Below, piece after piece: positions 9,001 through 12,000 of a stretch of DNA of 14,168 nucleotides. Within the stretch, counting starts at the first letter, position 1. Every line of letters starts with the position of its first letter. The position numbers were made by a program. Origin of the DNA: Candidatus Aenigmatarchaeota archaeon (GTDB lineage Archaea > Aenigmatarchaeota > Aenigmatarchaeia > Aenigmatarchaeales > JACQIB01); contig JBHIDR010000020.1 of assembly GCA_046760225.1 (NCBI GenBank), positions 1 through 14,168 on the forward strand, written 5' to 3'.

Positions 9001-12000
9001 AAAACCATTATGCCAGTAAGCGAAGAACTGCAAAAAGTAATGGCCTGCCCAAAGTGCAAGGGCGAGCTGGAGTTCGGGAAAAATGATATAAAGTGCCCTG
9101 CATGCAGGCTGAAGTTCAAGATTCTAGAAGGCGACATACCAGACATGCTCCTCGAGGACGCTGAGAAGTATTAAGCTTTAAATATTCTAGGACTTTACTA
9201 ATCATTAAGCCGGTGTAGCGAATGGCTTTGTATTTCGTTACAAGACCCGCGAAGCCAGGTTCAACGCGCCAGTTTTCAAGTTTTGAGGCCAATGGCCTGT
9301 GAAAGGCGACACTTGAGAACCTTAGGTTAAATGAATGAATGGCTTGACTCTGAAATGCGGCGGAGGATGTAGAGTCCTTTAAGTCATGATATCTGGTGTC
9401 CTTCGGGACGCGCAGGTTCGAAGCACTGCCCTCGGTGCACGAGGGTGGAAGCGAAACTCCTGCCGCCGGCGCCATTCCTTCTTTTAATTTATACAGCAAT
9501 TGTTCTCTCCAGGAATCTATCAATTTAAATGTTTTTGGGTCGCTATATCACACATGGGGTCCAAAGTGTCTCATCCAGATATATCAGAGTATTACAAAGA
9601 CATTCTTGAGATGGCTGATGCCTACAGGATGAGGAACCTCATAAACCCAACCAAACAGGCACAAAAGATACGAGAGAAAGCAGTGAGGAAAAAGCATGGA
9701 AAGATAGAGTTCCGCTCTACTAATTTTGCAGGAACACTGCAGGAAATAGATATTAAGAAAAGGACAGAGATGCCTCTTGATGCAATTACAAATACACACC
9801 CTTACAGATTCAAAATAGACACAAAGGAATTTGATCCCAAGGAGCGCGTGAAAAAGGCAAGGGATGAGTCCCTGCCCAAGCATGTGCGAGGAGAATATAG
9901 TGAACCATTTGACTTCAATGACATAAAGGGGATATTCAAGTCCCTTGGGCTCAAGTACAACTTTGACATGCCACTGATAAGTCTGCGCAGAACAGATCGC
10001 CCCCTGAAGGACATAAGGCACTTTGACATGGCTCTGATAACGCAGCTTCAAGGCTGTAATCTTCATGACTTTGGGCCTGGTGGCGGATGCATATTCTGCT
10101 ATGTGGATGCTGAGAGCAACTGTCCGTATACACCAAACAGGGGAGTATGGCTAGGGGTTGAGAATATACTTACCACAGTGAAAGAACTAAGGGATGATCC
10201 CACGATAAGAGCGGGCCTTGAGTTGCATAGGGTAAGGCTGAGCGGCGGAGAACCCACAGTGATGCTGGACTTTGCACTGGAGCTTGCTGAAACAATAGAG
10301 AAGGAAAAGATTGACCAGCTACATGTTTGGTTTGATACAAACCTGAGCGCAAAGACATTCATCGACAACATGATAAAGGAGAACAAATATCCAAAGGACA
10401 TACTTCAGCAGCTTGCATCGCATGATGTGTGCGTCTATGCTGCATTCAAAGGTACAACAGACAAGAACATAATACACAACGCCCAGGCAGAGCTCTCAAC
10501 TAATGAGCAGATGGAAGCGCTTGGGCAACTTGTGGATGCAAGGCTTGAGGCATATCCTTGTATATACAATCCTGATTACAAATCATTCCCAGATTTCATT
10601 GACAAGCTCAATGAGAACTTCACAAATGCCTCAAAGATTCTTAGAATAGAGGGTATTAATTGGACATATGAGCCCACGAAGCTAAGAATCAGGAAAATTG
10701 CAGAGGCCATAAATGTGCCAGAGGAATATCTGTACAATGCATATGTGCAGGAGGAGGCCCTAAATTATAACAAGTGCGAGGAGTTCATGCTGCACTACGT
10801 AGGTGATAAGTACGGCCTGCCGTACAAGGAGTTTGACAGGACACAGTTCAAGGTAGAGAGAAGGATTGTAGAGGCCTAATTTAATAAATAGGAAGTCTTT
10901 TGAGCTCTTCCATCATTTTTTCCCATTGTTCCTTTTCTTCTGGTGGTCCTTTGTAGTCAACTTGTGTGATGTAGGGCTCTTCAGACAGCTCATCTCCAGG
11001 GCATACCTCAACCACACATATGTCCCTTCCTGCTCCATCCTGTACCATAAAATATGAGTGTGGCATCTCTATGTAATCGATATCATTTTCATCATAGGTC
11101 TCTTCACCGGTTTCCTCATTATATCTCGGTTCCCAATCAAAAACATGTGATGTCTTGGTGTCTTCTGGTGGTACATATTCTATGTACTTGCATCCATATT
11201 TCAGACAAAAACCTTTCAGACCTAGGAATGGCTCCATAACTACAGTATCTACTATCTCCTCTATGGACCTGTTGTCCTCAAGCTCTACAGGGAATTTGTC
11301 CTTCTCCTTTTCCATAGATTCTAATACAATCTTATCTTTAAACAATTTTCTGGTAATTGAAGAAGCTTTATAAAGGTTCATTTGCAATAGGAAATATACT
11401 TTCCAGCGCAGTGCTGGTTGCCGTGGAGGGCACAAAAAGTGATACAATGGTCAAGGAAAAGAAAAAGTTCGAAAAAAAACCAGAGGTCAAGAAAGTAGAG
11501 GAAGGAGTGCGGGGAATTGTAAGGTTTGCTGAAGCTGACCTTGACGGTACTAAAAAGATACGGGTTTCTCTGCTCAAAGTCAAGGGAATAGGACAATCAC
11601 TTGCTATTTCTCTTCCCAGGGCAGCCGGGATTGACCCTGAAGCAATAACAGGAAAGCTCACAGACGAGCAGGTCAAGAGGATGGAGGAGATTCTGAAAAG
11701 CCTTACCAGAGCAGGCATACCGGGATTCATGCTTAACAGGAGAACAGACCCTGAAACAGGTGAGGACAGGCACATAACAAGCTCAGACCTCACGCTGAGA
11801 AGGAAGTTCGACATAGACTTCCTCAGGAAGATAAGATGCTACAAGGGCATAAGGCATGAGCAGGGCCTTCCAGTAAGGGGGCAGAGGACAAGGGGAAGCT
11901 TCAGAACAGGCGTAAGAGTAGGTGTCCAGAAAAAGGCACTGAAGAGAAAGAAGGAATGATTCCATGAAGAGGCAGAGAAAGAAATACTCGAGGCCGAAGA

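Follow-up and report, generated by a model that had tools for sequence, protein, structure and literature searches.

What function could a tRNA intron serve that would favour its retention across an archaeal phylum, and can such an intron act on an RNA other than its own host? The question is raised by the tRNA-Ser(UGA) gene of a Candidatus Aenigmatarchaeota archaeon (assembly GCA_046760225.1, contig JBHIDR010000020.1), whose 37/38 intron was described in a genome-wide survey's note as a box C/D guide RNA aimed at A1408 in the decoding site of 16S rRNA. The stretch of DNA that was analysed, termed the window here, comprises 14,168 nucleotides. Its gene content is archaeal, with cbf5 and cmk, as labelled by Pfam, and what we take to be a ribosomal-protein cluster, secY and adk. 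The tRNA-Ser(UGA) gene occupies positions 9209..9474 of the plus strand, on which all features described below are located, and is preceded by a TATA-like archaeal box (9177..9184) that was read directly from the sequence and may function in its expression. No tRNA was called by ARAGORN in the unspliced window; the joined exons (9209-9222, 9254-9272, 9311-9317, 9391-9422, and 9458-9474) were read as an 89-nt tRNA-Ser(tga), and the 21 tRNAs called across the genome include no second Ser(UGA) gene. The gene is interrupted by four introns: a D-loop intron (14/15; 31 nt, 9223..9253) whose register is ambiguous owing to a 5-nt repeat, a 30/31 intron (38 nt, 9273..9310), the 37/38 intron (73 nt, 9318..9390), and a T-loop intron (59/60; 35 nt, 9423..9457). 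Bulge-helix-bulge (BHB) motifs are present at the exon-intron junctions, with central helices of 3/4, 4/4, 3/4, and 4/4, respectively, the one at 37/38 being of the relaxed type and containing a U-U mismatch.

The 37/38 intron carries the boxes C, D', C', and D in this order and with 12-nt spacers, which is the arrangement of archaeal box C/D sRNAs. It begins with a 5' hairpin (9318..9329) that would become the closing stem of the C/D kink-turn on ligation of the intron ends (5 bp including U9390). The hairpin is followed by box C (9331..9337), which retains RUGA and is degenerate in its 3' half, the D' guide (9339..9348), and box D' (9350..9353), which reads CUGA (CTGA in the DNA). A conserved G-rich element (9357..9363), which is a candidate for extra base-pairing, separates D' from box C' (9367..9373), where position 4 is U and not A. 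The 12-nt D guide (9374..9385) and box D (AUGA, 9386..9389) complete the series, box D sharing its position with part of the 3' strand of the BHB and stopping one nucleotide short of the 3' splice site. Direct reading of these boxes and of the guide placed all of them where the survey's note had located them. Among relatives, a C-box-like 4-mer is present 4-5 nt 5' of the guide in 94/94 parsed tRNA introns. These introns were parsed by script and not by means of a covariance model, because a MAFFT alignment of 20 introns had misaligned flanks. The D' box is CTGA in 72 of the 94, CCGA in 19, and CAGA in 3, figures to be read with the boxes having been part of the search pattern. Rfam gave no match for the window at E<=5, as had been noted before; at gathering scores, two related loci returned tRNA only, the Nanoarchaeum equitans locus returned nothing, and locus L014 returned rRNA. 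Judged by its sequence, the intron agrees with a box C/D sRNA in all testable features bar the kink-turns, for which the 5-bp C/D stem is available only across the ligation junction, position 4 of C' is U, and folding of the naked RNA favours guide-guide pairing.

Complements of both guides were sought throughout the 851-kb assembly. The D' guide pairs at 10 of 10 positions with 16S 1405-1414 in helix 44, with U9345 as N5 opposite A1408, and its perfect complement occurs, besides the antisense of the guide itself, at one genomic site only, within the 16S gene (C1:41042, minus strand). The pairing asserted in the survey's note was therefore recovered, and its perfect target proved to be unique. 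For comparison, a given 10-mer is expected by chance about 0.0014 times in an rRNA of 1450 nt. The D guide forms a 10-nt duplex, including one G-U pair, with helix 27 of 16S rRNA (909-918; target at C1:44261, minus strand), and A9381 as its N5 lies opposite a base that we presume to be U912. The nucleotide at N+5 is thus in a Watson-Crick pair in both duplexes. A motif search for the 23S gene of this genome was unsuccessful. Numbers for 1405-1414 and A1408 follow the available text of PMC5389701 and PMC4644070.

The second guide, which the survey's note had left without a target and whose variability it had listed as a weakness of its claim, is not noise: it falls into distinct lineage classes, of which the present genome belongs to the one directed at helix 27. 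Among the 94 parsed tRNA introns, the second guide is complementary to the anti-Shine-Dalgarno region in 20, to helix 27 in 7, and of a type characteristic of family f2 in 8. In the helix 27 class, the guide base opposite 16S position 915 is A with U (G026), C with G (G033, G035), or U with G (the present genome, termed G000, and G003), and in G030 and G032, both of which have a different second guide, the helix 27 guide is degenerate. For the f2 type, a candidate 16S site (G002, G006, G012-G014) pairs over 8-9 nt, starting at N4. A site in the A-loop of 23S rRNA was considered for this type and rejected, the sole 23S match (G007, one of five genomes) pairing poorly. In addition, 40 of the 94 introns contain a further guide that is complementary to the own pre-tRNA, where it pairs with the end of the intron and the 3' exon, with N+5 on U39. 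In 40/40 of these, one base and then a box ending in GA follow, and N3 of the guide tracks the last base of the intron (A:T 26, C:G 11, T:A 2, G:T 1). Such a U39 guide, together with two 11-nt duplexes (one G-U each) found outside the rRNA locus on C2 and C7, could be taken to mean that the true target is a tRNA or an mRNA, as for the tRNA-Trp intron. We regard this as very improbable, as the D' guide has no complementarity to the host tRNA and tracks changes in 16S rRNA, and the U39 guide is absent from the 37/38 intron of this genome, in which both guides match 16S rRNA and not positions 34 and 39 of the host.

How closely the D' guide follows its target was determined in 52 genomes that have the guide in the tRNA intron and whose 16S gene was readable, and in 41 genomes in which the guide is hosted by a 16S intron. 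The helix 44 pattern used also covers 16S genes in which position 1400 is U. Left out of the paired counts were G066, whose helix 44 match looks like chance, G062 and G080, in which the host of the guide was not read, and the tRNA guide of G057, whose sole 16S match lies on a contig with an intron guide of its own that is counted among the 41. In 93/93 guide-target pairs N1 is unpaired, the spacing to the D' box is constant, and N5 is in a Watson-Crick pair. In the tRNA-hosted guides, N5, N7, and N8 form Watson-Crick pairs in 52/52, and N11 is A in 36/36 genomes with U1414; of the 16 genomes with A1414, seven have U and nine retain A, i.e., a mismatch, so that N11 = U is seen only alongside A1414. 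All seven genomes with U belong to one family (f38), so that this covariation in tRNA-hosted guides amounts to about one event. In the 16S-hosted guides, N7 is U in 7/8 genomes with A1410; with G1410 it is C in 27 and U (wobble) in 6. The two genomes with U1411 have A at N8. Positions N10 and N11 are often unpaired, with N11 mismatched in 9/52 tRNA-hosted and 30/41 16S-hosted guides, and N8 is mismatched in G089 and G091. Overall, compensatory changes were found at four 16S positions (1410, 1411, 1414, and 915); the guide follows its target in this sense with two counter-examples at N7, namely G181, with C opposite A1410, and G080, in which a guide with C stands against an A1410 16S gene on a short contig.

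A guide of this kind is present in the tRNA-Ser(UGA) intron of at least 103 genomes from 21 of 40 families, the count being composed of the 94 parsed introns, G142, G313, and seven known from match strings no longer than 80 nt; it is a lower bound because the assemblies are incomplete and not all matches were retrieved. The patterns that led to most of the loci include the guide core. With an exact pattern anchored at the C box, 83 of 230 genomes were matched versus 9 of 230 with the reversed control, and a looser pattern with one mismatch matched 222 of 371 genomes. Of 30 loci read from the latter, 20 were tRNA-Ser introns, one was a 16S intron, two were the 5' end of 23S rRNA, and seven were unrelated DNA; counts obtained with one mismatch are thus inflated by chance. 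Loci L039, L058, L066, L069, L271, L274, and L292 were recognised as chance matches on reading. The figure of 160/371 genomes given by the survey's note can therefore not be taken as a count of tRNA introns, all the more as the hosts are mixed, with 16S introns in many genomes, and the two loci that it had assigned to another RNA (L014, L015) are chance matches at the 5' end of 23S rRNA. A pattern in which only N2-N4 of the guide were fixed matched 93 genomes, of which 41 were genuine on reading, and all 41 of these tRNA matches have the same 8-nt core.

In 41 other genomes the guide is found in introns of 16S rRNA instead, which occupy three sites near the 3' end and a fourth in L270; in family f21, the host is a 16S intron 100-160 nt upstream of the target. 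Of 46 such genomes searched, the tRNA-Ser(UGA) was read in 28, and in 28/28 it was without the guide. The tRNA intron of G119 appears to be a remnant that keeps the outer boxes, which would hint at a movement from tRNA to 16S. In the present genome, the tRNA intron appears to be the sole source of a guide for methylation of the decoding site. N. equitans and one Altiarchaeota record have the guide in free-standing form, and public records with the same module are mostly labelled Candidatus Aenigmatarchaeota. As the same guide exists on its own as well as within introns of tRNA and rRNA genes, the path to intron-borne guides can be traced on a tree. The notion of a decayed or selfish insert, whose 16S match would be due to chance or a relic, draws on the genomes in which the tRNA-Ser guide is degraded or absent (G022, G024, G025, G029, G258) and on those in which no guide was found (G027, G028, G036, G037, G144). 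Against it, the core is kept in the 103 tRNA introns of 21 families while the flanks diverge, the two kinds of housing exclude each other in the 28 genomes read, and the compensatory changes at four positions largely refute it; we consider it extremely unlikely. The contig carrying the 16S gene attributed to G029, which the survey's note had used as support for the target, looks foreign to that genome.

The survey's note had left the N. equitans paper unread with regard to rRNA targets. This paper does describe an RNA, sRNA13 (sR13), with the same D' guide core and with the same 16S site as its predicted target (Randau 2012, PMC3491384, supplementary file 2), so that neither the A1408 target nor its guide, both already in print, is new; the intron housing alone is. 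Methylation of A1408 was predicted for N. equitans and S. acidocaldarius (Dennis 2015, PMC4644070), and Am1408 and Am1409 were measured in N. equitans by MALDI-MS and RiboMeth-seq and assigned to sR13 (Seistrup 2017, PMC5389701). The intron resembles sR13 in having the same 9-nt core directly before a CUGA D' box and in being aimed at A1408, according to the available text on sR13. The second guide is likewise anti-Shine-Dalgarno in the 20 tRNA introns mentioned above and in 3'-end 16S introns of relatives, and the available text of PMC5389701 gives a different second target for the sR13-type RNA of N. acidilobi. In contrast to sR13, which is a free-standing gene, the guide is here a tRNA intron that splicing would release; it has a helix 27 guide in place of the anti-Shine-Dalgarno guide of the sR13 family and an extra G-rich element. 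Together with the guide-target covariation, this mapped homologue lends support to the survey's proposal that the 37/38 intron is a putative box C/D guide acting in trans on 16S A1408.

Related arrangements are known from other tRNA introns. As in the pre-tRNA-Trp of Haloferax volcanii and in Pyrococcus sR50, a 37/38 BHB intron is itself a box C/D RNA (available text of PMC7994747 and PMC4090602), and the resemblance extends to the U39 self-guide in 40 relatives and to the 30/31 intron as a possible half-guide for U34; the difference is that the guides of the Trp intron are directed at C34 and U39 of the tRNA that hosts it, whereas both guides match 16S rRNA here. In the available text of these two reviews, tRNA-intron guides are described for tRNA targets only, and our literature search, in which subscription journals are thinly covered, yielded no paper in which a tRNA intron guides the methylation of rRNA. 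The tRNA-Met intron of N. equitans provides another C/D-like RNA in a DPANN tRNA intron and is a stable RNA (PMC3491384); it belongs to another tRNA, differs in sequence, and has its target given as 'no prediction' in the supplement. A broader parallel is offered by eukaryotic intron-encoded snoRNAs, in which an rRNA guide is likewise obtained from a host intron and a short D'-C' element is conserved; these are released from spliceosomal lariats, unlike the product of protein-catalysed BHB tRNA splicing (available text of PMC3116282).

Taken together, we consider it highly likely that the sR13 family of N. equitans has a tRNA-hosted member in the 37/38 intron, which as a box C/D sRNA with two guides would direct the 2'-O-methylation of A1408. 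The proteins of archaeal box C/D sRNPs, L7Ae, Nop5, and fibrillarin, are encoded in this genome, as are two EndA subunits and RtcB. Fibrillarin was above the cut-off in 214/218 genomes of the phylum, and the idea of a co-loss of guide and fibrillarin was dropped because of this near-universal occurrence. In the pathway that we propose, EndA would cleave the pre-tRNA at the BHB motif, and RtcB would circularise the excised intron. Before excision, the D guide and D box would be engaged in the BHB motif; in this lineage, ligation would then set the D box against the 5' hairpin, so that the C/D kink-turn is completed by the 5-bp stem. The circular intron might subsequently be bound by L7Ae, Nop5, and fibrillarin, and the D' guide on 16S 1405-1414 would lead to 2'-O-methylation of A1408 and the D guide on helix 27 probably to Um912. 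The overlap of the D box and D guide with the BHB motif makes the BHB and C/D folds mutually exclusive. As naked folding favours guide-guide pairing and does not form the 37/38 BHB, the RNA would have to be remodelled by proteins if this model is right. Points against the mechanism are the U at position 4 of C', AUGA as box D, the frequent N10/N11 mismatches, and the U-U mismatch in the 37/38 BHB.

Only one pair of the closing stem crosses the ligation junction in this genome, the D'/C' motif is independent of ligation, and in family f2 the C/D stem forms within the linear intron, so that a circle is not needed in every lineage; the guide might therefore work from unspliced or linear RNA, with the circle irrelevant. 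The mutual exclusion of the two folds in this genome argues against this, as does a junction stem of 3-6 bp that recurs with different sequences in 8/15 scorable genomes (here, G003, G026, G030, G031, G033, G035, G039); it has 0-2 bp in the other seven (G001, G032, G038, G068, G230, G232, G263). We judge a guide working without circularisation to be rather unlikely, and it would alter the form of the RNA only and leave the A1408 target unchanged.

The G-rich element bears on another alternative, in which the intron binds L7Ae and Nop5 and chaperones the folding of the decoding centre in pre-16S rRNA, methylation being absent or incidental. The element is present in 67/94 introns and in 0/20 introns of the anti-Shine-Dalgarno type. 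In a set selected on the core of the element, this third conserved part of the intron fits helix 18 by 6-8 bp in 60/69 introns, without N+5 spacing. Such pairing and the degenerate boxes would suit a chaperone, and roles of this kind have been proposed (available text of PMC4644070 and PMC5389701). The unpaired N1, the fixed D' box distance, and the Watson-Crick pair at N5 throughout the 93 guide-target pairs are points against it, as is the stoichiometric methylation of the site of the homologue in N. equitans (PMC5389701); chaperoning and methylation are, moreover, not mutually exclusive. A role as a mere chaperone is thus improbable, and methylation of A1408 remains our preferred reading, within which the element could provide extra base-pairing by analogy to eukaryotic snoRNAs. 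With the bases just 5' of the helix 44 target it forms 4-6 bp only, and no compensation is seen where 1400 is U. A reading of the element as a guide for Cm1402 was dropped because it is not followed by a D box at a fixed distance.

If the guide functions as read, it provides a selective reason for keeping the tRNA intron phylum-wide and connects the maturation of ribosomes with the splicing of a tRNA. The sR13 RNA was proposed as a substitute for the RsmA checkpoint (PMC5389701), and the intron classes offer a comparative test of this proposal as far as it is set out in the available text. N. equitans has no KsgA/RsmA, whereas the present genome retains it. In a comparison of 80 genomes picked by guide class, in which kin are not independent, KsgA/RsmA (PF00398) was found in 2/40 genomes with an anti-Shine-Dalgarno guide versus 24/40 with other second guides, including this one. 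The two exceptions, G029 and G057, both have 16S contigs that look foreign, and as sixteen genomes have neither KsgA nor an anti-Shine-Dalgarno guide, the link is one-way. A joint reading, which we put forward tentatively and hold to be possible at best, would regard BHB introns as mobile carriers of snoRNA-like guides in this phylum, in parallel to intronic snoRNAs. The sR13-type guide would have moved from a free gene to the tRNA-Ser(UGA) intron and on to at least five 16S sites, swapping its second guide (anti-Shine-Dalgarno, helix 27, own U39) on the way. Ligation would complete the kink-turn here, so that splicing of tRNA-Ser gates methylation of the decoding site, and the anti-Shine-Dalgarno form would replace the lost KsgA checkpoint.

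A second element of possible guide function resides in the 30/31 intron, in which a stretch antisense to the anticodon loop of the same tRNA (9274-9281) is followed by a D-like box (9283-9286). A hairpin (9287-9297) separates this box from a C-like GTGA (9299-9302). The whole element was found in 9 genomes, and its N2 pairs with nucleotide 31 in 9/9, involving three different pairs; in the MFE fold it is paired with the anticodon loop. Its candidacy as a half-guide for U34 of its own tRNA stands at about even odds. In five f16 genomes, a unit resembling this element and having a CUGA box is located at 37/38.

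The guide to A1408, which in the genome under study is carried by the 37/38 intron of tRNA-Ser(UGA), is housed within the 16S rRNA gene in some relatives. In family f21 (loci L246-L250, L144, L145, and L150), it lies within a single 16S intron located 5' of helix 44. This intron contains further conserved segments flanked by boxes and possibly combines several guides. In genome G119, the tRNA-Ser gene (L344) has an intron of 27 nt, which resembles the guide intron minus both guides, and the guide is found in a 16S intron instead. Short 37/38 introns of tRNA-Ser are also present in family f16 (L337, L338, L339, L345, and L346), where a segment antisense to the anticodon loop of the host tRNA itself is followed by CUGA; these introns are putative minimal U34 guides. 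Three 16S contigs of the f15 type were encountered in genomes of other families or of a different phylum label (L018 in G029, C56; L031 in G057, C31; and L296) and are probably misbinned.

The 16S gene of the genome under study spans approximately 6.3 kb on the minus strand (C1:40500-46860) and is interrupted by numerous short and long inserts, some of which have long open frames. Inserts flank the targets of both the A1408 guide and the helix-27 guide.

Within the window, the cbf5/truB gene (7471-8456, plus strand) is interrupted by a 38-nt insert (7685-7722) with a perfect 4-bp bulge-helix-bulge helix, and its removal restores the reading frame in the conserved TLD-P motif. In the abstract of PMC2738675, a cbf5 intron is reported for Sulfolobales and Desulfurococcales only. 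Between a ribosomal-protein cluster and cbf5 lies a plus-strand open reading frame of 554 codons (5819-7483), for which a Pfam search gave no match. The tRNA gene is immediately preceded by a Trm112-like gene of 54 amino acids (9010-9174, plus strand; PF03966), and a similar coding sequence is located 5' of tRNA-Ser in several related genomes (L022, L025, L076, L078, and L288). Immediately 3' of the tRNA gene starts a plus-strand frame of 459 amino acids (9500-10879) with a weak radical SAM match under the curated cut-off. In another genome of the set (G022), the fibrillarin match (C5:24107-24754) contains one in-frame TGA.
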